Shown here: one piece after another, positions 23,729 through 41,868 of the stretch
Layout: every line of letters starts with the position of its first letter
Position numbering within the stretch: the first letter of the stretch is position 1
From: an uncultured Myxococcales bacterium
GTDB lineage: Bacteria > Myxococcota_A > Bradymonadia > UBA4248
Direction: 5' to 3'
DNA length: 64,000 nucleotides
Assembly (NCBI GenBank): GCA_964454015.1
Contig: CAYVQF010000003.1
Coordinates: 127,057-191,056 of the forward strand
Translations under genes and position numbers: made by a program
Notes under the pieces: generated by a model
The model's input: the letters and a program-made list of their open reading frames with translations, nothing else
Databases searched by the model: none
Told to the model about the DNA's origin: nothing

Positions 23729-26176
23729 TCAGATGTCGACAATTTTGACCCCTTTGGGGCCTTTACGCTCACGATCTTTGCGGTCACGTGGCGGTTGCCG
23801 CTTGGTATCGTCGCCTCCAGTCGGCGGCTCTACCGGTGTGGGGTCCGGTTGGTCTTGGGCCAGGACCTCTTTGGCCTTGCGTGCTTCATCGGCCAGGGGG
23901 TGTTCGGGGAAGCGTTCGATGAGGGTCGTCAGCGCCGCGAGGGCGCTACCAGCATCACCGAGTTCATGGTGGCATTGTGCAGCCGTGAGGAGGGCAGGTG
24001 GTCCATGTTGGGGGTCGTCTTGGGCGCTTTCGAGGTGTGGGAGGGCGCCACGGCATTGGTTGTTTTTGGCCAAGGCTTGTCCGCGCAAGAGATGAGCCTC
24101 CAGTTGTTGAGGATCACTATCGAGGACGGTCAAGGTGAGCTGCGCTGCGAGGGGGAAGTCCTCTGTATCGTAGGCTTGTTGGGCCTGTGCCAGAAGTTCT
24201 TGGGGCGTCGGCGCAGGGGGTGGGTCAGGGGTGACGGCGGGTGGGGGCGTTGGGGTGACGGTGGGTGGCTCAGTGCCATGGCCGGTGGCGTCTGGGGGCT
24301 GGTCATTGCTGGCGCTGGTGGCTATCCAGATGATAGCGATGAGGACGAGGAGCGCTGCAGCGCCTGCGGCTAGGGGCCACAGCTTCTTGGGCTTGGCGTG
24401 CAGGGGGGCGGCGATAGGGCGATCATCGATGGCATCCTTGGGAGCGTCTGCAGGTGCGAGGGTCGTAGGTGCCGCGGTGGTGGGGATGCTTTCGTGTTCA
24501 GCGGAGTCGGGTCCGAAGAGAGCGAAGTCGAGCTCATCGGCGTTGGGTAAGTCCGTGGCCGTGTGCTGGGTGTCTTGGTCTTCGAGCATGGACTCGAGGG
24601 AGGCGGTCGCATGGGGTGGGATATCGGCGTCGGGTGCAGGGTCTGGGTGGCCTTCTGTGGCCGGTTCGTGGTGGGGGATGGCGCTCGGGATGTCTTTGTT
24701 TGCAAGGCCAGTGGATGGTTCTGGCGGCAGATCCGATGCTGGCGCGGGCGATTCTGTGGCCGCGGGTGCGCTGGACGTGTCCTGAAGCGGCGGGGCAGGG
24801 GTGGCAGTGACGGGAGGTCGTGGTGGCACAGGGGGTGGAAGGGGCGGCGCTTTTGCCGGTGCTGATTTGATGGGCGGTGTATCTGCGCGTGCTTCGACGG
24901 CTGGTTCTTCTGAGCTGGGCGCGGGTTGTTCCTGGGGCAACGCGGCAGAGGCAGGAGGTGTGCCCGAGTTCTTGGCTTTTTTTTCTGCAGATTGGGCTAA
25001 GGCCGCTTTGAGGGCGGAGAGTTTGTTGGGTGGTCCTGCGGGAATGCGCCCGACAGGCAGTCCGGTGTTGCTGGGCGCGAGGTTGGAGGCGCTGGCCGTA
25101 TTGTGTTGCAGTTGCGGGTGTTCTTGGTTTTGGGTGGAGGGGTCGGAGAATTTGGCAGCGCTGGGAGGGTTGGTTTTGCGCGATCCAGCTAAGCGCTGGG
25201 CATGTTTGAGGATGTCCTCAGGCGAGGAGTGGCGCTGGACGCGCAGATGTTCAGGGATGATTTCGAGGCTGGCCGCGTGGAGGGCGATGAGCATGTCTTC
25301 AGCCGATGCGAAGCGCTTTTCTGCTTCTTTCTCACAGGCGTGGAGGATGACTTCGCCGAGCTCGGTGTTCACGAGTCCAGGAGGGAGGATGAGTGGCTGG
25401 TAGACCTGATTCTTGATGACCTCCATGCTCGCGCCTGAGACTGCGGCGTTTCCAGTGAGGCATTCAAAGAGGATGAGGCCGGCGGCGTAGATGTCAGTGA
25501 AGGGTCTAGGCTCGGCAAAGAGGATGAACTGCTCGGGCGCCATGTAGGCGGGTGTGCCGAGGATCTGGCCAGCTTGGGTGATGTTGGGGTCGTTCTCGCG
25601 GAAATGCTCTTGAATGCCGGCGATGCCGAAATCGAGCACTTTGGCTGAGGTCAGGATGCCCGAGCCGCTGATCATGATGTTGGATGGCTTGAGATCGCGG
25701 TGGACGATGCCGAGGTTGTGGGCTTCAGCGAGGGCTTCGAGGACTTGGCCGATGACGCGTTTGGCGATGTCGAGGGGCAGAGGTCCTTGACGCAAGACCT
25801 TGGAGAGTGGTTCTCCGCGGATGAACTCGAGGACCATGAAGGGATCATCGTCGCGAAAGCCGGCGTCAAGGAGGCGGACCACGTGAGGGCTGGAGAGATT
25901 GCCAATGAGGCGCATCTCGCGCAGGAATCGTACGGCTTGTTCCCCTCTGGCGTCGACGTTTTTGGTGAGCCCAAGGAGGAGGGTCTTGATGGCCACGATC
26001 TGCCCGGTAGAGATCTGGCGGGCTTTGTGGACGACGCCGAAGCCGCCCGTGCCGATTTCCTCAAGTATTTCATAGCGTTTGAGGAATTCGCCTTGACTGT
26101 CTATTTTGGGATTCTCCACGGCGCTTGCCTCATGAACCAAAGTTTTCCCTTCGAGTGAGCTTAGCGTAGGGGACAC
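23729..26176 (-). CDS. serine/threonine protein kinase (Hanks-type) with a Pro-rich linker, TM and periplasmic TPR domain
   Basis: All catalytic motifs are intact (GTGGFGVV, VAIK, HRDLKPSN, DFG, GTPAYMAPE). The linker is long and Pro-rich. TM LAAGAAALLVLIAIIWIA. C-terminal TPR. Confidence 0.9.
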   Translation of the reverse strand: MSPTLSSLEGKTLVHEASAVENPKIDSQGEFLKRYEILEEIGTGGFGVVHKARQISTGQIVAIKTLLLGLTKNVDARGEQAVRFLREMRLIGNLSSPHVVRLLDAGFRDDDPFMVLEFIRGEPLSKVLRQGPLPLDIAKRVIGQVLEALAEAHNLGIVHRDLKPSNIMISGSGILTSAKVLDFGIAGIQEHFRENDPNITQAGQILGTPAYMAPEQFILFAEPRPFTDIYAAGLILFECLTGNAAVSGASMEVIKNQVYQPLILPPGLVNTELGEVILHACEKEAEKRFASAEDMLIALHAASLEIIPEHLRVQRHSSPEDILKHAQRLAGSRKTNPPSAAKFSDPSTQNQEHPQLQHNTASASNLAPSNTGLPVGRIPAGPPNKLSALKAALAQSAEKKAKNSGTPPASAALPQEQPAPSSEEPAVEARADTPPIKSAPAKAPPLPPPVPPRPPVTATPAPPLQDTSSAPAATESPAPASDLPPEPSTGLANKDIPSAIPHHEPATEGHPDPAPDADIPPHATASLESMLEDQDTQHTATDLPNADELDFALFGPDSAEHESIPTTAAPTTLAPADAPKDAIDDRPIAAPLHAKPKKLWPLAAGAAALLVLIAIIWIATSASNDQPPDATGHGTEPPTVTPTPPPAVTPDPPPAPTPQELLAQAQQAYDTEDFPLAAQLTLTVLDSDPQQLEAHLLRGQALAKNNQCRGALPHLESAQDDPQHGPPALLTAAQCHHELGDAGSALAALTTLIERFPEHPLADEARKAKEVLAQDQPDPTPVEPPTGGDDTKRQPPRDRKDRERKGPKGVKIVDI

Positions 26177-27519: not shown

Positions 27520-28911
27520 GTGGCCAATATTTTAGTCATCGATGACAACGAGACGATGCGCGAGGGCGTGGCGCAGGTGGTCGAGCGGATGGGTCACGTT
27601 GCGTATCGGGCGGTGGATGGGGTGCAGGGTCTCGAGCGCTTTCAGCAGTGTTCGATAGATTTTACGATCACCGATTTGAAGATGGCGCGATTGGATGGTT
27701 TGGGGGTGTTGCGGGAGATTCGCCGTGAGGATTCGCGCGCCTTGGTTTTGGTGATCACGGCGCATGGCACGGTGGAGAGTGCCGTGGAGGCGATGAAGGC
27801 GGGTGCTTTCGATTACATCACCAAGCCCTTTCCGCCGGAGGTGTTGCGGCTGAAGGTCGAGAAGGCGCTTGGGGTGCGCCTGGAGCGTGAGCGTCTCGAG
27901 GAGGAGAACGCCTATTTGCGGCGAGACGCCTTGGGCGGTGCGTCTTTTGATGCCATCGTCGGGGACAGTGAGGCGATGCGGCGGACGCTGGACTTGGTGC
28001 GTCGGGTGGCACCGACGGACAGTACGGTCCACCTTTTTGGTGAATCGGGGACGGGTAAGGAGTTGGTCGCCAAGGCGTTGCATGAGGCGTCAGGGCGAGG
28101 GCAGAAGCCTTTCATCCGGGTGAGCTGTAGTGCCTTGGCGGAGTCGCTGTTGGAGAGTGAGCTTTTTGGGCACGAGAAGGGTGCCTTCACGGGCGCGGCG
28201 AAGCGGCGCTTGGGGCGTTTCGAGGTGGCTGATGGTGGGACGCTGTTTTTGGACGAGATAGCTGACATCTCGCCCGGGATGCAGGTGAAGCTGCTGCGGG
28301 TGCTACAAGAGCGCGCTTTTGAGCGCGTGGGTGGGACGCAGACCGTGAAGGTGGACGTGCGCATCGTCTCGGCGACGCACAAAGATCTGCGGCTGGAGGT
28401 GGAGGCTGGGCGTTTTCGGGAAGATCTGTTTTATCGTTTGCACATCGTCCCGATAACGCTCCCTCCGTTGCGGGAGCGTCCGCGTGACGTGGTCGCTTTG
28501 GCGCACCACTTCATTGGCAAGTTGCGTCACCGGACGCGTTCTCAGGTGAAATCGATCAGCGCGGAGGCGCTATTGGCTTTGCAGTCCTATGGTTGGCCCG
28601 GCAATGTTCGCGAGTTGGAGAACAGCATCGAGCAGTCGCTGGTCTTTGCCGTGGGGGAAGAGATTGGCCTTGGGGATCTGCCGCCGCATCTCCATGGGCG
28701 GCCCTCTGGCCGCTACTTGGAGTTGCGTGGTGACGCGCGTCCGCTGCCCGACATTTTGGAAGACCTGGAGCGCCAGTTGATCCTGCGGGCCTTTCGCAGC
28801 GCGTCCGGGGTCAAGACCGAGACGGCCCGGATTTTGGGCATCAAGACGAGCGCGCTGTACTACAAGCTAGAGAAGTACGGCATTGACGAGTCCTTGCTCG
28901 GGGAGTCCTAG
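27520..28911 (+). CDS. sigma-54-dependent response regulator (receiver + AAA+ sigma-54 activation + Fis-type HTH), NtrC family
   Basis: Receiver (ILVIDDNE...[14 protein letters not shown]). Walker [15 protein letters not shown] motif present (EKGAFTGA). Walker B LFLDEI. C-terminal HTH ([19 protein letters not shown]). Confidence 0.9.
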
Positions 28912-28918
28912 GCTCTGC

Positions 28919-31900
28919 TCACTTGGTGGGGGTGTCGAGCCAGGTCCAGCCGCCGTCACGGAGGGCGGTGTCGATGTGGCGGAGGTAGTCGAGGACTTCG
29001 CGCAGCTTGGCCTGGAGGGCGTCTTGGTCGCCACTGTTCTGGGTGGCGGTGCGGACGATGGGGATGAGGGTCCTCTCGATGATGGCGACTTGCTGTGCGA
29101 GCAGCTCTTCAATGCCAGCCGGTGGTGGCGTGGTGACGTTGAGGGCGATCTGTGGATTGGCGAGCTCGTTCACCATGCCAGTGAGGCTCTGGAGGGCTTG
29201 CGGCAGGCTGTTCTGCATGCCTTGGCGCAGGTTGACGATTTCGTCACCGATCTGGGAGATCGCGCCAGAGACGCGGGCCACGGGGTCGTCCTCCTTGCCG
29301 CCCATGACCTTGATGCGCCGGAAATCGTTTTTGATCTGCTCCCAGCGGGTCTGTTGCTGTGGCGTCAGTTGGTGGGTGAGCTCTCTGAGTTTGAGGAGGT
29401 TGGCTTCGGCTCCATTGGTGAGGGTCTGGGCCTCGGCGGTGTAGTGTTCGTCGATGAGGCTTTGGACCTCTTGCGGGGTCATGGCGGCGACGACCTTCTC
29501 GGTGATTTTGTTCATGTTGCGGTAGGAGCCCTGGAGTTGGAAGCGGGGCTCGGTGCGATAAGCGTCGTCCATGGATGCGCTGGCGATGTAGGCGAGGTTG
29601 ACCTGGAGGAGCTGGGCCTGGATGTGGAAGAGGTGCTTGAAGATCGTCACGATTTCGGCGATTTCGACGCTCGAATAGCCGTGGACGAGGTCAGTGGAGG
29701 CGACGTCTTCGCCCTGGGCCATGGCGATGAGTTTGTAGATGTCGTTGCTGTCGCGGGTGGCCAGTGGTGCGAGGACTTGGTTCGAGGTGAGCGCGTTTTC
29801 GATATAGCTGAGGGCGAAGAGGTCGTCGCGTCCTTGGAGGATGTCTCCGAGGTTGTAGGTGTCGGCGCGGTTGGCGAGCATGTCGGGGATTTGAAATTTT
29901 TCCCCGGCTTCGGTGTAGGGGTTGCCCGCCATGACCACGCAGAATTTTTTCCCGCGGAAGTCGTAGGTTTTGGTTCTTCCTTGGAAGACGCCCTCAATTT
30001 TGCGTTGGGCGTCACAGAGGGAGATGAACTTTTGGAGGAGCTCGGGGTGGGTGTGCTGGATGTCGTCGAGATAGAGCATGACGTTGTTGCCCATCTCGAG
30101 GGCCAAATTGATTTTTTCCACCTCTTGCCTGGCTGTTGCGTTGGGGGCTTCGGCGGGGTCGAGGGAGCGGACGGCGTGGCCGAGGGCGGGGCCGTTGATT
30201 TTCATGAAGATGAAGCCGAGGCGGTTGCCGACGTACTCCATGAGGGTGGTTTTTCCGTAGCCCGGTGGTGAGATCAGGAGGAGGAGGCCCATGAGGTCGG
30301 TGCGTTTGCCTTCGCCAGCGGCCCCGATTTGTTTGGCCAGGTTGTTGCCGATGAGCGGCAAGTAGACGTCATTGATGAGTCGGTTACGGACGAAGGAGGT
30401 CATGACGTTGGGGGCGAAGTCGTCAAGGCGCACGCGTTCGCGGAAGCGCTGCAGGAGTTTGGTGCGCAGTTGTCGATAGCTGCGGTAACCCGGCACCCAT
30501 TCTTGGCGGAAGCGTTCGAGGCGCTGGTAGAAGTCGTCGAGGCGTAGGGTCAAGGTGCGGTTGACGATGCGGTGGTGGTTGCCAATGAGCCCTTGGACCT
30601 CGGTCTGGAGGCGTGCGCTGGAGACCTCCATGGTGAGGCGATCCCGGGCGAGCATGACGAGGGTGGCTTCGTCGGTGGCGTCGCGTGGTTGCTCGGGGTG
30701 GTTGGCGGCGAAGGCGTCGAGCCATGCTCTGGCGACGGAGAATTGGGTGGCGGGTTGGGCGCTCAAAGCGGCGAGGTCATCGTCGAAGGCCTGTTGTTGG
30801 GCCGAGGTGCGGAGGTAGTCCAGGAAGGCCGCGCCGAGGCGCTGAGCGTCGCTGCTGATGGGGAAGCGAGGTTGTTGGGCGCTCCCGATTTGTTCAAAGA
30901 GATACCAGGCGGCGAGGTTTCTTTGTTGGGCGTCGGCTTGCAGCGCTGCGTCCTGGAAGAAGTGCTCCAGGTGTTGGCTGAGTTGGTTGACGAAGCGTTG
31001 GTGTTCGGGGCGGTTGGCGAAGGATTGACGCAGGCGAAAGAGGCTGAGGGCGTGGCGATGGACTTGTTCTTTGGGGAAGTCCGGGCTGGCGTAGGCCCAG
31101 AAGAGTGCCGCCCAGGCGCGGCTCTGCGGCGGGTAGCGCAAGAGTCCAGCGCCGTGGCGCATGGTCAGAACTTTGTCGAGGATGAGGGCGGTGTCGTGGT
31201 CGTGGACCCCGCGTTCGTAGGCTTCGTCAAAGCGGTTGGCGGCGAATTCTCTGACAAGTCCGAGGAGTCCTTCGGGCGCGGCCATGGCAGCGGAGAGGCT
31301 TTCGAGGCTGAGTCCTTGGCGGCGCTCTTCGGCGGCGGCGATGATCTCGGCACACAGGAACTCGGCGCGGTAGACCTGGTCGGATTCGGAGATGATGTTA
31401 TGTCCCCAGAATGGCAGCGTGCGGGCGAAGTCCTGGTCTTCGACGGGGGCGTAGAATTCGGTGCCGTTGATGTGAATGGCCATCGTGGTCTGGCCTTCGT
31501 GTTCCCGGGGCACCATGGAGACTTCGATGGGTTGGGTGTTGACTGCGAAGCGGTGGCGTCCGAGCTTGATGAGTGCTTGGCCCTCTTCGTAAAGATCGCG
31601 ACGGTCGCGCAGGGTGCGCAGGGCGTCTTGGCGCAGTTTTTTGGCCTGGCTGCGGACTTCTTCAGCCTTGAGAGTGTCGTCGATGTCCTCGAGGTGCTGC
31701 GCCACTTGGTGCAGCTTGTGGATCATGGGATCGGCGGCGTAGTAGGCGTTGAGTTCGTCTTCAGTCTGGATGGCCTTGAGGCGTCTTTGCGCGCCTTCGA
31801 GGATGCGTTTGGCCGCGCTCATGAGGTTGGTGGCGCGTCGGTTGCGTTCATCGACGAGGGACTGTTTGCGCGCCGTGATGGCGTCGCGCACCTCATCCCG

Positions 31901-34156
31901 TTTCAAGGCGAGGTCAGCGGTGAACTCATGGAGCTCGCCGAAGCGGGCTTCGAGGTCTTCGAGTTGGAGGAGGAGGCGGGTCAGCTCCTCATCGCATCGC
32001 TGTGGGGTGTCACAGAGGGCGAGGGATGACTGTACGCTTTGGCCGAAGAGTTTGAAGTGGGCTGCGAACTCGGCCCGGTTTTCCAGGCTGAGGAGTTGTT
32101 GGTGGCGGCTGGTGATGAGGGCGCGGACGCGGTTTATCTGGGAGAAGACCTCAGCGACCTGCTCCAAGATCTGGGTGCGTAGGGTGGGATCTGGCATTTC
32201 GAGGCCATTGATGACCTCGATGAGTAGCTGTAGTCCTTGGGCGAGGGTGTCCAATTTCTCAGCAGGTGCCTTGAGCTTGTTGGCCTTTTGGATTTGATCG
32301 AGATCAGCGCCGAGGGCATCGATTTGTTTTCGCAGGGGGGTGAATGCTTGCCCGGCGAGGAGGAATTGGACGCATGCTTTGCCGACGTTGTCTGCGTAGC
32401 CGACGAGTTCACGCTCGAGTTTGTCGAGGGCGTCGCGGTCGATGTTGCGGACTTCGCGCAGGGTGATGAGGTGTCCGCGTTGGTTGCGCAGGGCGGTCAT
32501 GGTTTCGAGGAAGCGATCGATCTGGTTCCATTGGGTGGGATCCAGGCCGCGGAGGAGGGTGCGCTGGCTCTCCTGGGCGGCGGCGAGGGCTTGGGCGGCG
32601 GCTTGGGCGAGGCGCAGCACTTTCTCGAACTCATCGATGACTTGTTCGGTGGTGCGTCTGATTTCGAGGAGGCTGTCGCGGAAGGCGATTTCTGGATGTC
32701 CCAGCCAGTCGTAGGTGTCGAGGACGCGGTTGGTGAAGGCGATGAGGTCTTCGAAGGTGCGGCGTGAAGGTTTGGCTGCCTGTACCATCCTTTGTACGGT
32801 GAAGGCATCGGAGATGCCCCGGACGAGGTCGGCATTTCCAATTTTGGCCAGGAATCCGCCGCGGTTAGGTTGGCGGGCGGCTTCTTCGGCGCTGACGAAG
32901 GGTGTTTGCCAGACTTGCACGTTGTGGGTGCGGGTGGGTTCATCGCTGGTGTTGCGGAAGACGATCATTTTGCCGTCTTCGAAGATGGAGTAGCCGTTGC
33001 CAACGATAGGGGTTTGGATTTCTTTTCTGACGAGGTTGTAGGGGTAGAGGAAGTAGGTGCCTTCGTGTTCGCGATGGAAGACGTAGAGGACGTCTTCACC
33101 GTTGGGTGAGCGGATGGCCCTCTTGAAGCGCAATCCTGTGGTGTCGGCGTCGAAGACTTTGTAGTCACCCGTTTGGAGGTAGTAGCCTCCGGGGAAGATG
33201 ATGCCGTGGTCTTCGGGGAGTTGGACGCAGGCTTGTCCGATGGCGTCTTGCCGAACGGCTTCGGCAGTGCGGGTGTTGAAGATGAAGTGTCGGGTGATGC
33301 TTTCGCGGTAGGGCGTGACTTTGAGGAGGATGAGGGCGCCGAGTTTGGCGTAGTGGAAGGGAGCGTCGTCGAGGGACTGGTTGGGATCATCGACGAGCTC
33401 GGCATAGACGCCTTCGCCGCTTTCCGTGTTGTTCTCTACTTTTATGGTGAGGTCACCGCCGACGGTCTCGACGAAGACTTCGTTGAGGATGTTGACATGG
33501 GGGTGGCGTCCTCGGACGTAATTTTCAGGCGTGGTTTCCTGCCAGGTGAAGTCGTGGGCAGGGGGGAAGACATGGTCGCGTTCGCCGCGGTTGTCGACGT
33601 AGGTGATTTGTCCTTGGCTGTCGAAAGTCCAGCGAAAGACTTTGATATCTGGTGAGCTGGTCGAGATCTGGAAGACAGCCAGGAGGTAGCCGTCGTTGAC
33701 GCGGAGTTGTTGGAGCTTGGAGTCTTTGTAGTACTCGCGCAGTTCTTTGAAGTCGCGTTGGAAGCGGGCGTCGACGAGGAAGCCATCGACGGCGCTGATG
33801 TCGATTTCGGCGAGATCGAAACCTTCAGGCGTCGTTGCGAAGCCATGGAGGGAGAAGATGTCGCGGACAGAGGTCTCGGTCTTGAGGCCCATGAAGACGT
33901 TGTAGCCGAGGAGCAGATTGCCTTTGACGTTGACGATGTCGCGGAGCACGCAGTTGTGTTCGGTGCGGACGCGTTCTCTGCCGATACGCTCCAGCTCGGT
34001 GCCGCCAAAGTTCTGCTGTCGGTTCTTGTTGAGTTGTTCGGCGTGCTCTGCCAAGCGACGGGCTTGTTGGACGAGCCGTTGGTGGATGACGTCATAGTTG
34101 CCGAGATCGATGTCGGTGCTGTGCTCATTCTGGGTTGCGTTTGCTTTGTCCACCAT
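28919..34156 (-). CDS. giant (1745 aa) protein with a single MoxR/dynein-type AAA+ module near its C-terminus (hypothetical)
   Basis: Walker A ISPPGYGKTTLME (aa ~1296). Walker B VMLYLDDIQH. MoxR-like sensor region VVMAGNPYTEAGEKFQIPDMLANRADTYNL (nt ~29750-30300). The N-terminal 420 aa are beta-rich, and about 800 aa of Q/L/R-rich helical or coiled-coil sequence follow. No TM or signal peptide. Confidence 0.85.
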   Translation of the reverse strand: MVDKANATQNEHSTDIDLGNYDVIHQRLVQQARRLAEHAEQLNKNRQQNFGGTELERIGRERVRTEHNCVLRDIVNVKGNLLLGYNVFMGLKTETSVRDIFSLHGFATTPEGFDLAEIDISAVDGFLVDARFQRDFKELREYYKDSKLQQLRVNDGYLLAVFQISTSSPDIKVFRWTFDSQGQITYVDNRGERDHVFPPAHDFTWQETTPENYVRGRHPHVNILNEVFVETVGGDLTIKVENNTESGEGVYAELVDDPNQSLDDAPFHYAKLGALILLKVTPYRESITRHFIFNTRTAEAVRQDAIGQACVQLPEDHGIIFPGGYYLQTGDYKVFDADTTGLRFKRAIRSPNGEDVLYVFHREHEGTYFLYPYNLVRKEIQTPIVGNGYSIFEDGKMIVFRNTSDEPTRTHNVQVWQTPFVSAEEAARQPNRGGFLAKIGNADLVRGISDAFTVQRMVQAAKPSRRTFEDLIAFTNRVLDTYDWLGHPEIAFRDSLLEIRRTTEQVIDEFEKVLRLAQAAAQALAAAQESQRTLLRGLDPTQWNQIDRFLETMTALRNQRGHLITLREVRNIDRDALDKLERELVGYADNVGKACVQFLLAGQAFTPLRKQIDALGADLDQIQKANKLKAPAEKLDTLAQGLQLLIEVINGLEMPDPTLRTQILEQVAEVFSQINRVRALITSRHQQLLSLENRAEFAAHFKLFGQSVQSSLALCDTPQRCDEELTRLLLQLEDLEARFGELHEFTADLALKRDEVRDAITARKQSLVDERNRRATNLMSAAKRILEGAQRRLKAIQTEDELNAYYAADPMIHKLHQVAQHLEDIDDTLKAEEVRSQAKKLRQDALRTLRDRRDLYEEGQALIKLGRHRFAVNTQPIEVSMVPREHEGQTTMAIHINGTEFYAPVEDQDFARTLPFWGHNIISESDQVYRAEFLCAEIIAAAEERRQGLSLESLSAAMAAPEGLLGLVREFAANRFDEAYERGVHDHDTALILDKVLTMRHGAGLLRYPPQSRAWAALFWAYASPDFPKEQVHRHALSLFRLRQSFANRPEHQRFVNQLSQHLEHFFQDAALQADAQQRNLAAWYLFEQIGSAQQPRFPISSDAQRLGAAFLDYLRTSAQQQAFDDDLAALSAQPATQFSVARAWLDAFAANHPEQPRDATDEATLVMLARDRLTMEVSSARLQTEVQGLIGNHHRIVNRTLTLRLDDFYQRLERFRQEWVPGYRSYRQLRTKLLQRFRERVRLDDFAPNVMTSFVRNRLINDVYLPLIGNNLAKQIGAAGEGKRTDLMGLLLLISPPGYGKTTLMEYVGNRLGFIFMKINGPALGHAVRSLDPAEAPNATARQEVEKINLALEMGNNVMLYLDDIQHTHPELLQKFISLCDAQRKIEGVFQGRTKTYDFRGKKFCVVMAGNPYTEAGEKFQIPDMLANRADTYNLGDILQGRDDLFALSYIENALTSNQVLAPLATRDSNDIYKLIAMAQGEDVASTDLVHGYSSVEIAEIVTIFKHLFHIQAQLLQVNLAYIASASMDDAYRTEPRFQLQGSYRNMNKITEKVVAAMTPQEVQSLIDEHYTAEAQTLTNGAEANLLKLRELTHQLTPQQQTRWEQIKNDFRRIKVMGGKEDDPVARVSGAISQIGDEIVNLRQGMQNSLPQALQSLTGMVNELANPQIALNVTTPPPAGIEELLAQQVAIIERTLIPIVRTATQNSGDQDALQAKLREVLDYLRHIDTALRDGGWTWLDTPTK

Positions 34157-34498
34157 AAGTCGACCTCATGCTCGTGCATGGCGAAGGAATCACGTCCCGT
34201 TTAGCGGCGCGCCCAGCCTACGCGGTTGTTGGGAAAAGCTCAACGGCGGGTGCTGTGGCGGCGCATGCTAGAGCGTTGTTCTAGGGCTGAGGGGGCTGGG
34301 TGTGATCGTGTTTGTGGTGGCACGGCACGGCGTGCGGTGGTGATTGGACTGGGCGTGTTTGGGGTGGGCTTTGGGGCGGGTCAGGGTGGCCTGGTCGAGT
34401 AGTTGTGTTTGCCTGACACTTTGGGCAAGATGCGCTAGCTTGGGAGAGTGCTTGCGTAGGCTTGGGCCGTTGGCAGGAGTAGAGCCGCGGGCGTTCAA

Positions 34499-35221
34499 TT
34501 GTGGAGGATGGCCATCGTGTCACATCAAGCAGCGTTTTATGCTCCTTTTGAAGTCGTCGTGCTGCCTTATGAGACGACGACACCTGCTTTACGGGCCTGG
34601 TTGCGCTTGGGTGGCTTCTGCATTCCGCCAGTCTTTGCGCGTGTGCATTGGGGTCCTGCCATTTTTCGTGTGGCCCGGGAGAGTCAGGAGCCGCTGGTGT
34701 TGCGTGGGCTGGCGCCCCAGGGGAGTGCGCCGCCGTCGCTGCGGTCGGGTGGTCTCGGCGAGGAGCAGGGCGGCTACGACGATGCGAACAGCAGTGTATC
34801 GACCGGGGCTTTTCAGCCGGTGGCCAACAGCTTGCGGGGAGGTGGGGCGAAGGAGGCGTCGACGATGCAGATCGACTACGACCAGGCCAATGCTTTGGCG
34901 CGTGGGTCTAGAGGTCCGTTGACGGCGGGAGACAACACGGCCCAGGCGGCCCACCGCACGGAGCGCCTGGATCTTTCGGACTGGGGTTTCTTGTTGCGGG
35001 TCGTGCTCATTGCTGATGAGCAGAACCACGATCCCGTGGGGACTTTGGATCGTCTGCGTCCCACCATAGGGACGTGGTTACACAACGAGATTCCTCAGCC
35101 GTCACGACTTGAATACGATCGTCGTTTTCGCCGCGATGTGGAGAAAGGCTTGGCCAGGTTTTTGAGCGAGACGATTGGTCGCTTTCCAATCATCAATGTT
35201 GACATCCAGTTCATCGAGTAG
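34499..35221 (+). CDS. hypothetical protein (240 aa)
   Basis: The only plausible frame in this interval. The overlapping 34344..34922 frame is R/C/W-rich noise. No domain recognised. It overlaps hypA convergently by 11 nt. Confidence 0.4.
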   Translation: MWRMAIVSHQAAFYAPFEVVVLPYETTTPALRAWLRLGGFCIPPVFARVHWGPAIFRVARESQEPLVLRGLAPQGSAPPSLRSGGLGEEQGGYDDANSSVSTGAFQPVANSLRGGGAKEASTMQIDYDQANALARGSRGPLTAGDNTAQAAHRTERLDLSDWGFLLRVVLIADEQNHDPVGTLDRLRPTIGTWLHNEIPQPSRLEYDRRFRRDVEKGLARFLSETIGRFPIINVDIQFIE

Positions 35222-35608: not shown

Positions 35609-37750
35609 GTGCCCGCTTCTTGGGAGGTGGAGTTTAGTATGCGCAGCGTTTTGAGTCACCCGTGGTGTGTGGTGTTGACGATTCCTCTTTTGGTGGCGTT
35701 GGTGGGGGTCGTGACGGGTGCTTATGTCTATCGCTCGATGCGTTCCATGCTCTTGGAGATGGCAGGAGCTCGCTTCTCCGATAGCGCGGCCAGTGCGTCG
35801 ACGCATGCACAGGCCTTGTTCATGCAGGGTCCGGAGATTCTCTCTTCGTTGCGTTTGGATGTGGAGAGCGGTGAGGCCGTGGTGACCTTCCAGCTTGGGA
35901 CCCGCTTCGTGGAGATCATGCGTCATCGTCCGGGAGTAGCTTGGCTGTCGTACAGCAGCCCAGAGGGGCGCTTCGTTGGCGTTTCGCGCTTGGGAACGTC
36001 AGCGTTTTTACTTACGGAGCAGGAGGTTCTGCGTGAAGGTGTGACGCGTCACCGGGCGTGGGAGCAGGCGGGCTCTTCGTGGCAGTTGGTGCGCGATGAT
36101 GAAGCGGATGACTATGACCCGCGGTTGCGCCCCTTTTATCAGGTTGCCACGCAGACAGAGGGGATCGCCTGGACGGCGCCCTATGTGTTTTTCAACCGCG
36201 GGGTGCCGGGTATTTCTGCGGTACAGGGGGTGCGGGATCCTTTGGGGCGTTTGGTCGGGGTGTTGACCGTCGATTTCGATGTGAGCTCGTTGTCGGCGGC
36301 GCTGACGGCCAGTGCCGAGGCGAGCGGTGTACATATGTTTTTGTATACGGACGCGGACGCGCTCCTAGCGTTGTCGGGGGCGCGCTTCGACGCGACCCCG
36401 GGGCGTGGGAGTGAGGGTGAGTTGGCGGCGTTGGCGGCCTTCGCTGACCCCATGGTGGGGGCCTATTTTGCTGCGCGTCCCAGTGTCGAGGAGGCGCGCG
36501 GGCGATTTCCCGTAGAGGTGGCTGGCGAGGTCTTCCTGGCGCGTGAGGCATCTTTTTCACCGGATGGTCAACACGCTTGGTTCGTAGGCGCCATGGCGCC
36601 GCAGGCGCGTCTGATGGCGCCAGCGACGGCGATGACCCGGTCGAGCCTGTGGTTGGGGCTGGGGGGGTTATTGTTGGTGATGGCCGTATCGGGCGTCTAT
36701 GCGCGTCACATTGCGTGGGCGCGGGGTGTGGCGGCCGAGGCCAAGGCTGAGGCCAGCGAGGCGAGGCAGCGACTGGTCGAAGTGGGCAGCTATCGTTTGG
36801 TGCGGAAGTTGGGGGCGGGCGGTATGGGGGAGGTTTGGGAAGCCGAGCACGTGTTATTGGCGCGCCCTGCGGCGATCAAGTGGATACGGCGTGGGAGCAA
36901 AGGCGTGGCAGGGGAAGAGGCCAACGCGCGTTTCAAGCGGGAGGCGTTGGCGACGGCACGTTTGACGAGTCTGCATACGATCAAGGTCTTTGATTTCGGC
37001 GTGAGTGAGGAGGGGGACTTTTTTTATGTCATGGAGTTGTTGGACGGTGCGGACTTGGACACTTTGGTTCGGCAGTGTGGCCCTTTCCCTGCGGGGCGGG
37101 TGGTGCACGTTTTGATGCAAGTGTGTGCCTCTTTGGCCGAGGCGCATGAGGCAGGCTTGATACATCGGGACGTCAAGCCAGCGAACATATATCTATGCAA
37201 GCAGGGTGTAGCCCATGATGTGGTGAAGGTGCTGGATTTTGGCTTGGTCGAGGAGGTGGGGGCCGAGGAGGAGCAGCGGGTCTTTCAGGGTGGTACCCCG
37301 GCTTACATGGCGCCGGAGGCGATCACTGGGGGGGAGATCGATGGGCGTTCGGATTTGTATTCCTTGGGCTGTGTGGGCTACTGGCTGTTGACGGGGAGCG
37401 CGGTCTTTTCAGCGCCTTCTCCTTCGGCGATGTTGATGCAGCAGGTGCAGGCGATGCCCGAGCGCCCGACTTTGCGGCTAGGTCGGGAGGATTTGCGCGA
37501 TGTGGAAGCGGTGATCATGGCGTGCTTGGCCAAGGATCCCCAGGATCGTCCGGCAGATGCTTTGCATCTTTTACGGTTATTGGGGGAGGTGAACGTGCCT
37601 GCTGACCAGCAGTGGTCGCAGGGTTTTGCGCGGCGGTGGTGGCAGGAGTACGGGGAGGCGCAGGCGGGCTTGGATCTTTTAGCGGCCTACCAAGAAGAGA
37701 AGACCTTGGTGCGCAAGGACTTGGGTGGTCCTGGTCCTTGGCAGCATTGA
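35609..37750 (+). CDS. receptor-type serine/threonine protein kinase (N-terminal TM, extracytoplasmic sensor, second TM, Hanks kinase)
   Basis: TM1 WCVVLTIPLLVALVGVVTGAYVY. Periplasmic region of about 300 aa. TM2 LWLGLGGLLLVMAVSGVYA. Kinase motifs are intact (GAGGMGEV, AIKWI, HRDVKPAN, DFG, GTPAYMAPE). Confidence 0.85.
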   Translation: MPASWEVEFSMRSVLSHPWCVVLTIPLLVALVGVVTGAYVYRSMRSMLLEMAGARFSDSAASASTHAQALFMQGPEILSSLRLDVESGEAVVTFQLGTRFVEIMRHRPGVAWLSYSSPEGRFVGVSRLGTSAFLLTEQEVLREGVTRHRAWEQAGSSWQLVRDDEADDYDPRLRPFYQVATQTEGIAWTAPYVFFNRGVPGISAVQGVRDPLGRLVGVLTVDFDVSSLSAALTASAEASGVHMFLYTDADALLALSGARFDATPGRGSEGELAALAAFADPMVGAYFAARPSVEEARGRFPVEVAGEVFLAREASFSPDGQHAWFVGAMAPQARLMAPATAMTRSSLWLGLGGLLLVMAVSGVYARHIAWARGVAAEAKAEASEARQRLVEVGSYRLVRKLGAGGMGEVWEAEHVLLARPAAIKWIRRGSKGVAGEEANARFKREALATARLTSLHTIKVFDFGVSEEGDFFYVMELLDGADLDTLVRQCGPFPAGRVVHVLMQVCASLAEAHEAGLIHRDVKPANIYLCKQGVAHDVVKVLDFGLVEEVGAEEEQRVFQGGTPAYMAPEAITGGEIDGRSDLYSLGCVGYWLLTGSAVFSAPSPSAMLMQQVQAMPERPTLRLGREDLRDVEAVIMACLAKDPQDRPADALHLLRLLGEVNVPADQQWSQGFARRWWQEYGEAQAGLDLLAAYQEEKTLVRKDLGGPGPWQH

Positions 37751-39562
37751 TCACCGGAACCAGAGGCTTGTTTGGCGGTGGCCGCTGAAGGCGATGGCGA
37801 CGAGGAAGCGGGTCTGAAAGCCAGCGGCGTCGGCGGGGAGTCCGCTCAAGGCCTCATCGCGCAGGCAGGCCATGAAGGCTTCGTCGCCGAAGGTGTCGAA
37901 GGGGGTGTTGGGGTCGGGGGCCAAGATTTCCGTTTTGGCGCCGGTGCCCCAGAAGGAGGCGACCGATTCGACGCGGGCCAACACGAGGCCTTGCACGGGT
38001 TCACCCAGACGTCGCTCCAGGCGTTCGTAACAGCGGGTGATGTTTTTTCGGCGGGCGCGGAACCACTCGTCGAGGAGCGTTTTCAGCTCGGCGGGCATGG
38101 GTGGGGCGTTATCGGTACGTTCTTCGATGAGGGGTCCGAGGGCGATGCTGCGCTCCTGGGCGCGATCGAGGTCGAGGCTTTGGGCGGCGTTTTGGATGTC
38201 TGCGGGGAGTGATGCGGTGATGGGCGCCAGGAGTGGGATGAAGCGGGCCTCGGGGAAGAGCTGGGGCAGGCGCTGGAGTCGTTTGAGTCGGTGGGCGGCC
38301 AAGAGGGTGAGGATTTCTTCATGGGCGTCGATGGCTTCGGCGCGGAGAGCGGTGAGGCGGGCGAGCTCGGGCCATTGGGGATCGAGGACGAAGGGCACCC
38401 AGGCGAGTTCTGAGATGAGCGCCCCTGGCTGGGGTCGCTGTGGGTTGCCGGTTGGCATGAAGTAGAGCTTGGCGAGTGGCGCGGCTCTCTCTTCTGCGAG
38501 CCTGATGTCGCCACCGGCGCTGGCCGTCCGGGCGGTGATGATGCGATCGAGCAGGGTCCATTCGAGCCAGAACCAGAGCAGCGCAGCGCCCTCTTGTCCA
38601 GGTTTGAGGCTCTGATAGAGGGTCTCCGTGGCTTGCCAATCGGGCTCGTGCGCCAGCGCGTCGAGGGCGAAGAGGGCGGTGCGGGCGGCCAGGCGCAGGT
38701 GTTCGTCGTCAACGGCGGACATGAGGGCGTGAAAGCGCACGGCGCACCGGCGGAGATGATCGGCGTGGGTTCGGGCGAAGGCGCGGTGGTCGAGGCGGGC
38801 GGTGGGCGGGTTGGTGCTGGCGTCGATGGTGCAGGCTTCGAAGAGGCGGTTTTCGAGGTCTTGCAGGCAGGTGTTGGTTTGGGTGTACCATGCGGCGTCA
38901 CCCGGTGGGTCATCGGCTCTGGCGATGCGGAAGGGGAAGAAGGTTTGGACGTCGGCGCGCTGTCGTCCCCGGATGAGTCCGCCATCGTGGATGGCGTAGA
39001 AGCCTGGGGTAAGGGGCACGGCGGGTTGGAGGCGCATCATGCCGGGGTGGTCTTCGAGTCGCTCGCTGACGATGGGGGCGATGGAGGCTGGCAGCCAGCC
39101 GACGAAGCCTTCGCGGCTCTTCTCCCACCAGCGCGGCGGGAGTATGGCTTCAGGGGCGAAGCGGGTCAGGCGCAGGGTCGCTGGGTTGAGGGTTCCCGTC
39201 CATAGGACGAGTAGGGGTTGTGCTTGGTCGAGCACGGTGCCAATGGGGCGGACAAAGCCAAAGCCACGGTCGGCGTTGGTTGGGTGTAGGTCCAGGGGGT
39301 CGCCGCGTTCGATTTCGTGCAAGCTGGGTTGGGCGCCCGTGTTCTGCACCCAGAAGAGCCCGAAGCGATCGGGGAGAGGTGAGTCGGGGAGGAGGGGCGC
39401 AGGCGCCATGGCGGGGGTTACGCCTTCGCGGGGGTCTTCGTCTGGTGGCGCCGTGGTAAGGCTTTCCCCGTTACAGGCCAGGAGGGTGGTGGCGAGGAGG
39501 GTGAGCAGGGCGAGGCGCGGTTTGCAAGGACGCGCACGGTTCATGCAGGTGATTGGGTACAT
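37751..39562 (-). CDS. large lipoprotein (hypothetical, ~600 aa)
   Basis: Start trimmed to MYPITCMNRARPCKPRLALLTLLATTLLACNGE (lipobox LLAC). The 231-codon upstream extension of the ORF is P/A/S-rich with no similarity. Abuts the convergent kinase gene. Confidence 0.55.
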   Translation of the reverse strand: MYPITCMNRARPCKPRLALLTLLATTLLACNGESLTTAPPDEDPREGVTPAMAPAPLLPDSPLPDRFGLFWVQNTGAQPSLHEIERGDPLDLHPTNADRGFGFVRPIGTVLDQAQPLLVLWTGTLNPATLRLTRFAPEAILPPRWWEKSREGFVGWLPASIAPIVSERLEDHPGMMRLQPAVPLTPGFYAIHDGGLIRGRQRADVQTFFPFRIARADDPPGDAAWYTQTNTCLQDLENRLFEACTIDASTNPPTARLDHRAFARTHADHLRRCAVRFHALMSAVDDEHLRLAARTALFALDALAHEPDWQATETLYQSLKPGQEGAALLWFWLEWTLLDRIITARTASAGGDIRLAEERAAPLAKLYFMPTGNPQRPQPGALISELAWVPFVLDPQWPELARLTALRAEAIDAHEEILTLLAAHRLKRLQRLPQLFPEARFIPLLAPITASLPADIQNAAQSLDLDRAQERSIALGPLIEERTDNAPPMPAELKTLLDEWFRARRKNITRCYERLERRLGEPVQGLVLARVESVASFWGTGAKTEILAPDPNTPFDTFGDEAFMACLRDEALSGLPADAAGFQTRFLVAIAFSGHRQTSLWFR

Positions 39563-39642: not shown

Positions 39643-41868
39643 GTGCCCGGGGCAGGTTTGAAAGGGCGAGGGTGCGCGTGCTATGTTCGGCAGGTTTTGT
39701 TGCAGGAAGCGGACATGGTTTCGTGGGTAACGTGGTTTGGCGCAGCAAAGGAGGTGGCGATGGTCGTGGGAGCCGCGGTGGAGACGGACGCAGGGGACTT
39801 AGCGGCCGCAGTGGTGGCAAACCAAGCCAATCTTTGCTGGGAGTTCGCGAGGATGGAGCGCCGGATCGCGGCGTGGGAATGCCTGCGTGAGGATGGCGAC
39901 AAGGGAGCCTATGTGTCTTTTGTGACCACCCAAGAGGCCGAGCGTCTGGCGGTGCGAGCGCGGCGGCGTGAGGCGGTGCGTGCGGGGGCGGACCTGGCGC
40001 TGGAGCGCTTGGTGTCGCGCTATGGTTTGAGCGCGGCTGAGGAGGAGGTGTTGGTGGCGGCGTTGGCTTTTGCGACCAGTGGAGGGTTGCGGCAGGCGCT
40101 GATTCGGGCCCAGGGCAATTTGCTGAAGTCCTATTTGGAGGTGGGTTTTTTGGCGGACTTCCTCTTTCCGCAGGAGACATACGCTGCCGAGTTGGGGTGG
40201 TTGTACCCCGATGGGGTGTTGCTTCGGGAGGGTTTGCTGGTCTTGGAGGTGCCACGGGAGAGTGGTATTGCGGCGCCGTTGTTAGGACAATCCCTCTCGG
40301 TGCCGCATTTCGTGGCGGCCTATGTGCAAGGCCGAGCGGAGCTCGATGAGCGCTTGGTGAGTTTTGGCCGTTACGTGGCGCATGCTGCGCTGGTCGGCGA
40401 GGTGGTGCTGCCCGAGGAGACGCGGCGGAGTTTAGAGGCCTTCATGGGTGGCTTTCCGCAGGCGGAGGGGGTGCTGGTGCTTGGGGAGCGTCCTTGGCGC
40501 TTGTTGGTGTCAGGCCCCCAGGGATGTGGCAAGACGGTCCTGGTGGAGAGCTTGGCACGGTCTTTTGGGCGCCCACTGTTGACGGTGCATTTGGAGCGTT
40601 TGGTGGGTGAGGGTGACGCCCGGGGCTTGCTGGGCCTGGTGCAGAGCAACGCCGCGTTGCATGGTGCGGTGCTGCATTTGTCCATGCCCGAGACGCTGCT
40701 GGAGTCGGACGCGCGCTGGAGCGGGCCTTTGGTGGCCTTGATGGAGAGTTATGGGGGCTTGTGTGTGCTGGAGACGCAGCGTGCGGATCGGCTGGACGAC
40801 AGTTTCGAGTCGTTGATCCATTTCTCCATTGCGGTGGAGCGTCCCGATGCGGACGGTCGGGAGCAGCTTTGGCTGTCGATGTTGCCGCGGGAGGTGGGGC
40901 TAGCGGCGGATGTCGCCTTGGGTGAGCTTTCGGTGAGCTATGAGTTGAGCGGGGGTCAGATCCGCGCGGCCGTGGCGTGGGCGGTGCAGCGCAGTTTGGC
41001 TCGGGGGGTGGCGGAGCTCAGGCATGCCGATCTGGAGGCTGGGGCGCAGAGTCAGCTTCGGGCCAAGCTGGAGGAGTTCACCGAGGCGAGCCGGGTGAAG
41101 TTGACGATGGCGCACTTGGTTCTGCCGAGCGAAGCGATGACGGAGGTGCAGGAGTTTTTGGATGCGTGCCGGCATCGGGCCAAGGTGATGTACGAGTGGG
41201 GTTTTGGTAAGCGTTTGGTGACGGGTAAAGGATTGGTGGCGCTCTTTGCGGGTGAGGCGGGCACGGGCAAGACCTTGTGTGCAGAGATCCTGGCGAATGA
41301 GCTGGATTTGCGTTTGCAGATCGTGAGCATCCCCAAGGTGGTGAGCAAGTGGGTGGGCGAGACGGAGAAGAACATCCGCAAGGTCTTTTCCCACGCTCGG
41401 GCGCAGAACTCGATGCTCCTTTTCGATGAGGCGGACTCGCTTTTCGCCAAGCGGGTCAAGGTAGAGCGCTCGCAGGACCACTACCAGAACATGGAGGTGA
41501 ACATGTTGCTGCAGGAGGTGGAGCGTTTTGATGGGATCATCATCATGACGACCAACCTGGAGGCCAACATCGACAGGGCTTTTGAGCGGCGCATTTTGTT
41601 CAAGATCGAGTTTCCGAGTCCCGAGGCGGCGGAGCGTGAACGGATTTGGCAGACCTTGATTCCGCAGAAGACCCCGGTGGACGAGTCTTTGGATTTCGAG
41701 TTTTTGGCGGAGCGTTATGAGCTGACGGGTGGACAGATAAAGAACGCCATCGTCCGTGCGGCATATCGTTGTAGCGCCGCAGGACACGGATTGAATCAAG
41801 AGGCCTTGGAGTTGGCGGCGCAGCAGCAGGCGAGCGCTGCGGGGCGCTTGGCGCGTGAAGTCTATTGA
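39643..41868 (+). CDS. tandem AAA ATPase (degenerate N-terminal AAA + canonical C-terminal classic-clade AAA, CDC48/FtsH-like)
   Basis: First module has a degenerate P-loop (SGPQGCGKTVL). Second module has GEAGTGKT, DEADSLF and an SRH region (IIIMTTNLEANIDRAFERR), typical of classic AAA. The start may be at 39715 (MVSWVTW). Confidence 0.85.
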   Translation: MPGAGLKGRGCACYVRQVLLQEADMVSWVTWFGAAKEVAMVVGAAVETDAGDLAAAVVANQANLCWEFARMERRIAAWECLREDGDKGAYVSFVTTQEAERLAVRARRREAVRAGADLALERLVSRYGLSAAEEEVLVAALAFATSGGLRQALIRAQGNLLKSYLEVGFLADFLFPQETYAAELGWLYPDGVLLREGLLVLEVPRESGIAAPLLGQSLSVPHFVAAYVQGRAELDERLVSFGRYVAHAALVGEVVLPEETRRSLEAFMGGFPQAEGVLVLGERPWRLLVSGPQGCGKTVLVESLARSFGRPLLTVHLERLVGEGDARGLLGLVQSNAALHGAVLHLSMPETLLESDARWSGPLVALMESYGGLCVLETQRADRLDDSFESLIHFSIAVERPDADGREQLWLSMLPREVGLAADVALGELSVSYELSGGQIRAAVAWAVQRSLARGVAELRHADLEAGAQSQLRAKLEEFTEASRVKLTMAHLVLPSEAMTEVQEFLDACRHRAKVMYEWGFGKRLVTGKGLVALFAGEAGTGKTLCAEILANELDLRLQIVSIPKVVSKWVGETEKNIRKVFSHARAQNSMLLFDEADSLFAKRVKVERSQDHYQNMEVNMLLQEVERFDGIIIMTTNLEANIDRAFERRILFKIEFPSPEAAERERIWQTLIPQKTPVDESLDFEFLAERYELTGGQIKNAIVRAAYRCSAAGHGLNQEALELAAQQQASAAGRLAREVY

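Follow-up and report, generated by a model that had tools for sequence, protein, structure and literature searches.

In FtsH–HflK/C, a cage of SPFH proteins surrounds an AAA+ protease, with FtsH itself membrane-anchored, of the classical AAA+ clade and fused to its protease. The DUF3686 family of ATPases would share with it, by analogy, the theme of an AAA+ ATPase joined to a membrane scaffold of the SPFH family; the DUF3686 protein is instead soluble, MoxR-like and devoid of a protease domain. The Vps4/ESCRT-III and PspA systems offer a second comparison, the common idea being the recycling of a membrane-bound polymer by an ATPase, and PspA joins the DUF3686 operon in some Gammaproteobacteria. 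Here, however, the ATPase is of a different AAA+ clade, has no MIT domain and is linked to PspA in a minority of loci. MoxR ATPases are typically stand-alone proteins of about 300–350 aa paired with a VWA partner, whereas the protein described below has 1745 aa and no VWA neighbor. The operon that carries the family was described in 2024 by comparative genomics as encoding a 'novel AAA+ ATPase', was placed in the PSP network and was predicted to act in sub-membrane dynamics (PMC11237479). This was the only paper we found on the combination of SPFH, AAA+ and propeller. We found none joining flotillin with the name 'DNA repair ATPase', and searches of some 8 million papers for DUF3686, PF12458, DUF7902 and PF25472 returned no paper; we found no experimental work on the family. 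A paper on SPFH proteins of Pseudomonas aeruginosa leaves the ATPase unmentioned.

The gene studied here lies within a 64-kb stretch of DNA that we analyzed as a whole (the window). It starts with ATG, with a GAGG 9–12 nt 5′ of the start codon.

28919..34156, minus strand: complete gene of a 1745-aa DUF3686-family AAA+ ATPase, stop codon included (ORF list, translation, full-length homologs and Pfam).

We consider this gene real, as had been proposed from the open reading frame, because a record identical to the protein exists and alignments to more than 7,300 homologous clusters span 93–100% of its length. Long antisense ORFs within the gene (for example 28883–30271 and 30572–32029, both on the plus strand) were rejected as shadows of a GC-rich coding sequence; where other loci have them, they are likewise no more than shadows.

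The protein is a typical member of a family that is widespread and already named, and it has the same domain order. Pfam DUF3686 (PF12458) matches at aa 35–482 with E = 1.6e-198, covering profile positions 2–447 of 448, and DUF7902 (PF25472) follows at aa 603–686, so that the earlier statement that the protein contained no recognized domain besides the AAA+ module does not hold. A Pfam AAA match covers aa 1292–1412, where both AAA (PF00004, 27.5 bits against a cut-off of 21.2) and AAA_5 (PF07728, 24.3 bits against 22) are above their cut-offs but marginal. The order DUF3686, DUF7902, AAA is common to more than 7,300 protein clusters. The earlier note had found the architecture impossible to map; it indeed fits no characterized family, but the named family DUF3686 shares its domain order, and the combination of PF12458, PF25472 and AAA makes this protein a routine member. 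A search with the N-terminal domain alone found 727 clusters (at 50% identity). Full-length members have about 1600–1950 aa, the longest listed 2044 aa. They occur in at least five phyla: members were found outside Myxococcota in Actinomycetota, Gammaproteobacteria and Planctomycetota, among others. This copy is 52–59% identical to its nearest relatives and 31–47% identical to the most distant members sampled. It belongs to the length class of the family and carries its invariant motifs. Of the 269 alignment columns conserved to at least 97% among 197 other members, it retains 261. Searches against PDB sequences, whether with the protein alone or with a profile of 25 sequences, returned no solved relative, only the P-loop stretches of p97, RuvB and Rix7; NCBIfam likewise gave only sub-threshold P-loop matches to RuvB and CDC48.

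The domain layout was read from two overlapping AlphaFold2 (AF2) models, with mean pLDDT values of 85.5 and 83.6. The architecture is that of a large cytoplasmic protein with an N-terminal β-propeller, a long helical arm and then a MoxR-like AAA+ module. From the N terminus, the parts are as follows.

32906..33991, minus strand: N-terminal β-propeller, aa 56–417, the core of DUF3686 (about 28 strands in AF2, pLDDT mostly 85–94; Foldseek).
31592..32890, minus strand: first helical region, aa 423–855, with helices of 40–58 residues and DUF7902 inside (AF2; Pfam PF25472).
32099..32350, minus strand: DUF7902 (PF25472), aa 603–686 (Pfam, E = 4.6e-25).
31445..31573, minus strand: small β-sheet unit, aa 862–904 (predicted by each of the two AF2 models, whose ranges overlap at this unit).
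30647..31369, minus strand: second helical domain, aa 930–1170 (AF2, pLDDT mostly above 90).
30431..30631, minus strand: small β unit and long connecting helix into the ATPase, aa 1176–1242 (AF2).
29837..30286, minus strand: AAA+ α/β core, aa 1291–1440.
29306..29827, minus strand: lid and following helical domain, aa 1444–1617, with the invariant QGSYR (AF2; invariant columns).
28922..29284, minus strand: C-terminal helical tail, aa 1625–1745 (low AF2 pLDDT and low conservation).

A helix at aa 20–50 precedes the propeller. The β-rich character ascribed to the N-terminal domain from its sequence is borne out by the roughly 28 strands of the model, and Foldseek searches with this domain matched β-propellers throughout (the propeller of prolyl oligopeptidase, paraoxonase, Ski8 and CyRPA). 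The top Foldseek matches of the N-terminal half, IFT-A and nucleoporin chains that combine a propeller with a solenoid, had TM-scores of just 0.06–0.12, and we do not take them as kinship to coat proteins. The roughly 800 aa described as helix ahead of the AAA+ module are mostly long helices, but two small β units interrupt them. Their richness in Q, L and R had also been remarked on; the Q-richness is present, but it reflects the biased composition of this copy when set against its homologs (Q 7.0% vs 4.6%, N 4.4% vs 2.8%, with a skew toward Q, N and H). The AAA+ motifs had been placed correctly, but the module is not at the very C-terminal end, as some 300 residues lie beyond the core: the MoxR-like module spans aa ~1291–1560 and is followed by the helical tail. 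Conservation extends over the full length and is highest at aa 1251–1450, where the consensus reaches about 90%. In the tail (aa 1625–1745), consensus drops to 0.32–0.54, homologs carry large insertions, and the length varies across the family.

All motifs of the ATPase core that had been read as MoxR-type (GYGKT, LYLDD, NPYTE and PDMLANRADTYNL) are in place. Walker A is SPPGYGKTT at 1296–1304 and Walker B is VMLYLDDIQH at 1359–1368; AGNPYTE follows at 1410–1416 and PDMLANRADTYNL at 1424–1436. Sensor 1 is N1412, R1430 is an arginine-finger candidate and QGSYR (1542–1546) may provide sensor 2. Across 25 diverse members, this protein included, Walker A, the DD of Walker B, the sensor-1 asparagine, R1430 and GSYR are invariant, as are, in the same alignment, the wider motifs SPPGYGKT, DDIQH, GNPYT, PDMLxNR and QGSYR. 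AF2 places a pre-sensor-1 hairpin at aa 1385–1400, between the post-Walker-B helix and the sensor-1 strand, whereas at the helix-2 position (aa 1326–1339) it predicts a conserved loop with no hairpin. Reading the sequence of the pore loop 1 region, we found no aromatic residue, which makes a classical threading unfoldase mechanism doubtful. Walker B has DD rather than DE, which may mean slow turnover or a switch-like mode of action.

In the models, the ATPase core and lid are structurally closest to members of the MoxR family. The best matches are CbbQ (PDB 6l1q) and NorQ (PDB 9qh4), with which they share the pattern NPxxE...LxxR(A/F)D and, as modeled, a pre-sensor-1 β-hairpin. The module is just 12–14% identical to CbbQ and NorQ, has DD in Walker B, shows no clear helix-2 β-hairpin insert in the model and forms part of a 1745-aa chain in which a propeller and about 800 aa of helices come before it. 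The structural likeness, together with a VWA gene found downstream in Myxococcus loci, could point to a canonical MoxR-type chaperone working with a VWA-domain partner, as in RavA–ViaA, CbbQ–CbbO and NorQ–NorD. However, the protein is five times as large as a MoxR ATPase, and the VWA partner is missing: no VWA gene adjoins the ATPase gene in the window, and a VWA cluster is not conserved in the 81 loci compared from other genomes, where conservation is limited to the SPFH and small membrane-protein genes described below. The earlier observation of no vWA partner and no transmembrane (TM) segment thus agrees with the neighborhoods and with our failure to see a TM segment in the protein, and pairing with a VWA protein is a most improbable mode of action.

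RefSeq names the family 'DNA repair ATPase' and Pfam calls it 'ATPase involved in DNA repair'. That the protein repairs DNA is suggested by this inherited database name and by a weak local likeness to RuvB at Walker A (E about 1e-3), but the RuvB similarity is limited to about 35–50 residues at the P-loop, the NCBIfam RuvB models score 16–19 bits against cut-offs of 282–299, and RuvB ranks structurally below CbbQ and NorQ. A Pfam scan of the 1745-aa protein detected neither a DNA-binding domain nor a nuclease, protease, TIR or other effector domain. The conserved partners are membrane proteins, and repair genes are not conserved nearby. We found no support for the database name in this analysis and give a role in DNA repair hardly any weight.

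The neighborhood of the family in other genomes, in which conservation had been suggested as a check, is strongly conserved. In 79 of the 81 loci, a gene of about 710 aa lies directly upstream of the ATPase on the same strand; the two exceptions start at a contig edge. Upstream of it, a gene for a small membrane protein of about 240 aa is present in 74 of 81. The ~710-aa partner carries a TM segment at its N terminus, together with an SPFH/Band_7 domain and a long helical region rich in E and A; the SPFH/Band_7 domain was matched in 7 of the 20 members, at best with E = 5e-11, and on plasmid pQBR103 RefSeq lists an 'SPFH domain-containing protein' beside the 'DNA repair ATPase'. The assignment of the small partner as YqiJ/NfeD-like is taken mainly from PMC11237479, the Pfam match being marginal (E = 0.02–0.03 in 1 of 20 members). 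Profiles of both partner proteins matched nothing among PDB sequences or NCBIfam.

In 16–17 of the 81 loci the operon is extended by genes for PspA/IM30 and YjfI (DUF2170). The ATPase might accordingly remodel the ESCRT-III-like polymers of PspA/IM30 in the manner of Vps4, rather than a flotillin scaffold: in Pseudomonas-type loci the operon follows genes for PspA (E = 4.5e-53) and YjfI/DUF2170 (E = 1.3e-52), on pQBR103 it is fused with yjf genes, and the published analysis sets it in the PSP network (PMC11237479). Yet PspA is adjacent in 16–17 loci, as against 79 for the SPFH gene, and the AAA+ module resembles MoxR and falls outside the Vps4/classical clade; no MIT-like domain was detected. 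We regard this reading as improbable.

We favor the reading in which the DUF3686 ATPase is the ATP-driven partner of an SPFH/flotillin-like scaffold and a small YqiJ/NfeD-like protein, and does the same job in trans in the present genome; we put its probability at roughly 55%. Gene neighborhood is the one line of evidence that ties the family to flotillin, and that neighborhood is missing at this locus. The gene upstream of the ATPase is a divergent 234-aa ORF, not a flotillin-like gene. No SPFH or YqiJ-like gene was found in the 64-kb window by tblastn, and HMMs of the partner families found none at E ≤ 10, with a positive control scoring E = 0 and 1.6e-54. The locus therein differs from the family, whose SPFH and YqiJ-like genes stand beside the ATPase in the large majority of other loci (79 and 74 of 81).

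The divergent gene and the ATPase gene share an intergenic region.

34157..34516, no strand: intergenic region shared with the divergent 234-aa gene (34517–35221, plus strand) (sequence; public-contig gene calls).

In canonical loci, a flotillin-like gene would sit at this position. The '340-bp G-rich upstream region' singled out earlier is merely part of a window-wide strand skew: the GC skew is +0.23 over the whole 64 kb, and the composition of 34157–34516 matches it. The convergent σ54 activator noted next to the ATPase gene is present, as a response regulator gene at 27520–28911 (plus strand) with 7 bp between the stop codons. A σ54 site (TGGCAC-N5-TTGC-like) was sought near the ATPase start without success, the sole site with three mismatches lying 316 nt upstream; no σ70-like promoter was found in 34157–34516, and terminator-like sites are rarer at the locus than in shuffled sequences. 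Neither the upstream G-richness nor the σ54 activator could be linked to the ATPase by these promoter and neighborhood checks.

This gene and its three closest relatives (P0002, P0003 and P0004) form a small clade, all four without partner genes within the available flanks, while the next relative outside it has them. The ATPase thus persists intact without its operon neighborhood. It is conceivable that the clade was repurposed for a different substrate after leaving the flotillin operon. In addition to the distribution of the partner genes, the terminal branch of the window protein is long (0.33 in a neighbor-joining tree without bootstrap), and 8 near-invariant columns are changed, against a family median of 1; one of the changes, W1391F, falls on the tip of the pre-sensor-1 hairpin. 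Most of them are conservative, however, set against 261 of 269 columns retained, and P0002, P0003 and P0004 have only 2–5 changes each. The distance to the gammaproteobacterial outgroup (0.85) is within one standard deviation of the family value (0.78 ± 0.09), and the extreme compositional bias of the genome can also yield a long branch. The four loci have acquired no new shared neighbor, having in common only the ATPase, shadow ORFs and generic Ser/Thr kinases. Repurposing is therefore unlikely; most likely, the stand-alone copy still does the job of the family with partners encoded elsewhere in the genome.

A remodeller or stress ATPase had been suggested for the protein, which was a reasonable guess, but the 'uncharacterised machine' already belongs to a named family, DUF3686. 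The further suggestion that it serves in defense is not supported. An ATPase of an anti-phage or conflict system would suit a large multidomain protein with an NTPase and a propeller, some copies of which are on large plasmids (13 records). However, PADLOC-DB 2.0 gave no significant match (the best, mad8, had E = 0.035 and 11.6 bits and was confined to the P-loop), there were 0 matches among 50,697 phage records, and no effector domain was found. The same three-gene operon spans phyla at 40–55% full-length identity, unlike fast-turnover defense genes, and the genes around the ATPase in the window are ordinary chromosomal ones with housekeeping and signaling functions. A defense role is very unlikely.

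For the family, we infer that ATP-driven remodeling of a flotillin-type membrane scaffold is the most likely function. The ATPase would pair with the membrane-anchored SPFH/flotillin-like scaffold and the small YqiJ/NfeD-like membrane protein. Its AAA+ modules probably form a ring, by analogy with CbbQ and NorQ, and the propellers may serve as binding heads. Hydrolysis of ATP would then power the building, remodeling or dismantling of the flotillin-type assembly at the membrane, or the extraction of its clients, and so contribute to membrane maintenance or to the handling of envelope stress. More tentatively, DUF3686 could be a dedicated ATP-driven motor for the assembly and disassembly of SPFH cages, a possible equivalent, for membrane scaffolds, of Vps4 or NSF, with the stand-alone clade uncoupled from the operon and acting in trans or on a new substrate. 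If the inferred remodeling role is right, the family would provide the first regulator of bacterial SPFH/flotillin assemblies known to consume energy.

The family is already named in databases and described in the 2024 paper, and this copy is one more, divergent member, which shares no more than 59% identity with any other protein on record. Because its partners are absent, this copy is a poor starting point as a test case. The DUF3686 family as a whole merits experiments: a protein of about 190 kDa, found in at least five phyla and encoded almost always beside a flotillin-like gene.

The ATPase gene (28919-34156, minus strand; 1745 aa, ATG start) is a real gene, present as the earlier note had claimed. 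A recorded metagenomic contig of 231,783 bp encodes an identical protein, which aligns over 93–100% of its length with more than 7,300 protein clusters. With 120 homologues aligned, conservation spans the entire protein and peaks at about 90% consensus at residues 1251-1450. Antisense ORFs, the longest of 485 aa, run across the gene (28883-30271 and 30572-32029, both plus strand, and others). These were rejected as genes because their equivalents in other loci recur only as shadows of the ATPase gene.

Pfam places DUF3686 ("ATPase involved in DNA repair") at residues 35-482 (E = 1.6e-198) and DUF7902 at residues 603-686 (E = 4.6e-25). Homologues among the matches listed carry the same Pfam set, with the RefSeq name "DNA repair ATPase". 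The protein is near certain to be a member of the DUF3686 family. The earlier observation is confirmed and its AAA+ classification supported; the proposal of an unmapped architecture has to be given up, because a named family has the same domain order. An N-domain search alone returned 727 clusters at 50% identity, with full-length members of 1600-1950 aa and identities as low as 31%. When each species was represented by a single genome, at least 579 matches were confirmed; those listed belong to Myxococcota, Actinomycetota, Gammaproteobacteria, Planctomycetota, Acidobacteriota and others. The gene occurs on 13 plasmid or chromid records and was absent from the phage records searched, and the locus studied here lies in an ordinary chromosomal context, not in an island. 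A function in anti-phage defence is very unlikely.

The four ATPase motifs reported earlier were located by position in the protein.

Sequence motifs of the ATPase module
aa 1296-1304: SPPGYGKTT (Walker A)
aa 1359-1368: VMLYLDDIQH (Walker B)
aa 1410-1416: AGNPYTE
aa 1424-1436: PDMLANRADTYNL

Two AlphaFold2 models, each built on a 99-sequence alignment, cover residues 1-900 (mean pLDDT 85.5) and 881-1745 (mean pLDDT 83.6). They show a predicted propeller–helical–AAA+ layout.

Predicted elements of the ATPase (AlphaFold2; tail also from the alignment)
aa 20-50: helix
aa 56-417: about 28 beta strands
aa 423-855: long helices, some of 40-58 residues
aa 862-904: small beta unit
aa 930-1170: helical domain, well predicted
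aa 1176-1242: beta unit and long helix
aa 1291-1440: AAA+ alpha/beta core
up to about aa 1617: lid and further helices
after about aa 1617: tail of low confidence and poor conservation

Foldseek matched the N-terminal half only to beta-propellers (prolyl oligopeptidase propeller, paraoxonase, Ski8 and CyRPA); the TM-scores are low, and this half is therefore assigned to a fold class only. In the ATPase core, a predicted beta-hairpin at residues 1386-1399 lies between Walker B and sensor 1, and the model contains no clear helix-2 hairpin. The module is very divergent in sequence: its Pfam scores are marginal for both AAA (27.5 bits) and AAA_5 (24.3 bits), and a family profile searched against PDB sequences retrieved only the P-loop stretches of RuvB and Rix7. 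The earlier "MoxR-type" assignment is therefore supported by the predicted structure, whose ATPase geometry is MoxR-like, and not by sequence scores. Judged from the alignment, the catalytic residues are invariant in the family, as are a Walker B of DD rather than DE and the lack of an aromatic residue at the pore loop 1 position. That the protein works as a classical MoxR–VWA chaperone is exceedingly improbable. The database name would make it a true DNA repair enzyme; nothing but a P-loop resemblance to RuvB speaks for that name, and such a role is extremely unlikely.

To define the conserved neighbourhood, every ORF of 81 loci from other genomes was clustered. In 79 loci the gene immediately upstream, in the same orientation, encodes a protein of about 710 aa; the remaining two loci begin at a contig edge. 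In 74 of the 81, this gene is itself preceded by one for a protein of about 240 aa. The larger partner combines a TM segment at its N-terminus with an SPFH/Band_7 domain (matched in 7 of 20 partners, best E = 5e-11) and a long E/A-rich helical region. The smaller has several TM segments and a soluble domain at its C-terminus, and its match to YqiJ/NfeD is marginal only. Linkage of the ATPase to the SPFH protein is near-obligate across phyla. This operon has been described before and assigned a proposed role in sub-membrane dynamics (PMC11237479); we found no experimental study of the DUF3686 family or the flotillin-linked ATPase in the literature.

In 16-17 gammaproteobacterial loci among the 81, genes for PspA/IM30 and YjfI (DUF2170) precede the operon. 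On pQBR103, a megaplasmid of Pseudomonas fluorescens SBW25 (NC_009444.1, 86458-103521), the operon is joined to a complete yjf gene set: yjf-type genes (DUF2491, DUF350, DUF1190, glutathionylspermidine synthase), the small membrane gene, the RefSeq "SPFH domain-containing protein" and, directly after it, the "DNA repair ATPase" follow on one strand. An ATPase that remodels PspA itself is rather improbable. We favour, at a probability of roughly 55%, a family member whose AAA+ modules would assemble as a ring, with helical arms and propellers serving as binding heads. ATP would be spent on assembling, remodelling or dismantling a flotillin-type membrane scaffold, or on extracting its clients, inside a wider PspA/envelope-stress network; the window copy may do the same job in trans. 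This mechanism is much less certain than family membership.

The window copy stands alone, without operon partners alongside.

Genes around the ATPase gene
23729-26176, minus strand: signalling gene
27520-28911, plus strand: sigma-54 response regulator (signalling gene)
34517-35221, plus strand: divergent gene, 234 aa
35211-35564, minus strand: hypA (hydrogenase nickel insertion)
35609-37750, plus strand: signalling gene
37751-39562, minus strand: protein of about 600 aa, no Pfam match
39643-41868, plus strand: protein of about 700 aa, variant winged-helix domain (PF22977) and two AAA modules
50063-52315, plus strand: signalling gene

Upstream lie the divergent 234-aa gene, which has no Pfam or NCBIfam match and is not common to other stand-alone loci, and then hypA; downstream, a convergent sigma-54 response regulator follows after 7 bp. 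Across the 64-kb window, tblastn detected no homologue of either partner, and the partner-family HMMs gave nothing at E <= 10 (control locus: E = 0 and 1.6e-54). In a neighbour-joining tree the ATPase groups with three relatives (one from "Deltaproteobacteria bacterium CG2_30_63_29") whose available flanks likewise hold no partner genes, the upstream gene being divergent and unrelated in each; the next relative out keeps the canonical pair. Together the four make up a small clade whose ATPase has lost its linkage to the flotillin-like and YqiJ-like genes, and no further neighbour is common to their loci. Of 269 columns with at least 97% conservation among 197 other sequences, the window protein keeps 261, the changes being V100I, G165S, R210P, A935C, G979A, L1242V, A1310G and W1391F (family median 1, 95th percentile 7), and its distance to an outgroup deviates from the family mean by less than 1 SD. 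It is therefore intact and under constraint. Repurposing of the stand-alone clade is unlikely.

The 340-bp G-rich upstream region noted earlier is not a feature of the gene but part of a window-wide GC skew of +0.23; neither a sigma-54 nor a sigma-70 consensus was detected upstream of the ATPase. The strand asymmetry is extreme and uniform over 1-64000 (AT skew -0.14), and cumulative skew climbs without a turn; in 88 loci from other genomes, absolute skew has a median of 0.024 and reaches 0.16 at most. Minus-strand genes carry C at 50-62% of their third codon positions, and plus-strand genes carry G at 44-51% of theirs (coding-strand GC3 skew -0.5 to -0.66 and +0.34 to +0.41). The skew biases the amino-acid composition of encoded proteins, which explains why the ATPase is enriched in Q, N and H and depleted in E, G and V relative to its homologues.

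Signalling genes are dense around the ATPase: two Ser/Thr kinases (one TPR, one Cache sensor), a kinase-like PP2C protein and the sigma-54 response regulator. The immediate neighbours of hypA include no other hyp or hydrogenase genes. The second AAA module of the winged-helix protein matches classical AAA strongly (E = 2e-35), and SelB and formiminotransferase-cyclodeaminase are also encoded in the window.

The DUF3686 family is known and named but experimentally uncharacterised, and the window ATPase adds a member in an unusual stand-alone context. The family at large is well worth experiments, preferably in a species that keeps the operon.
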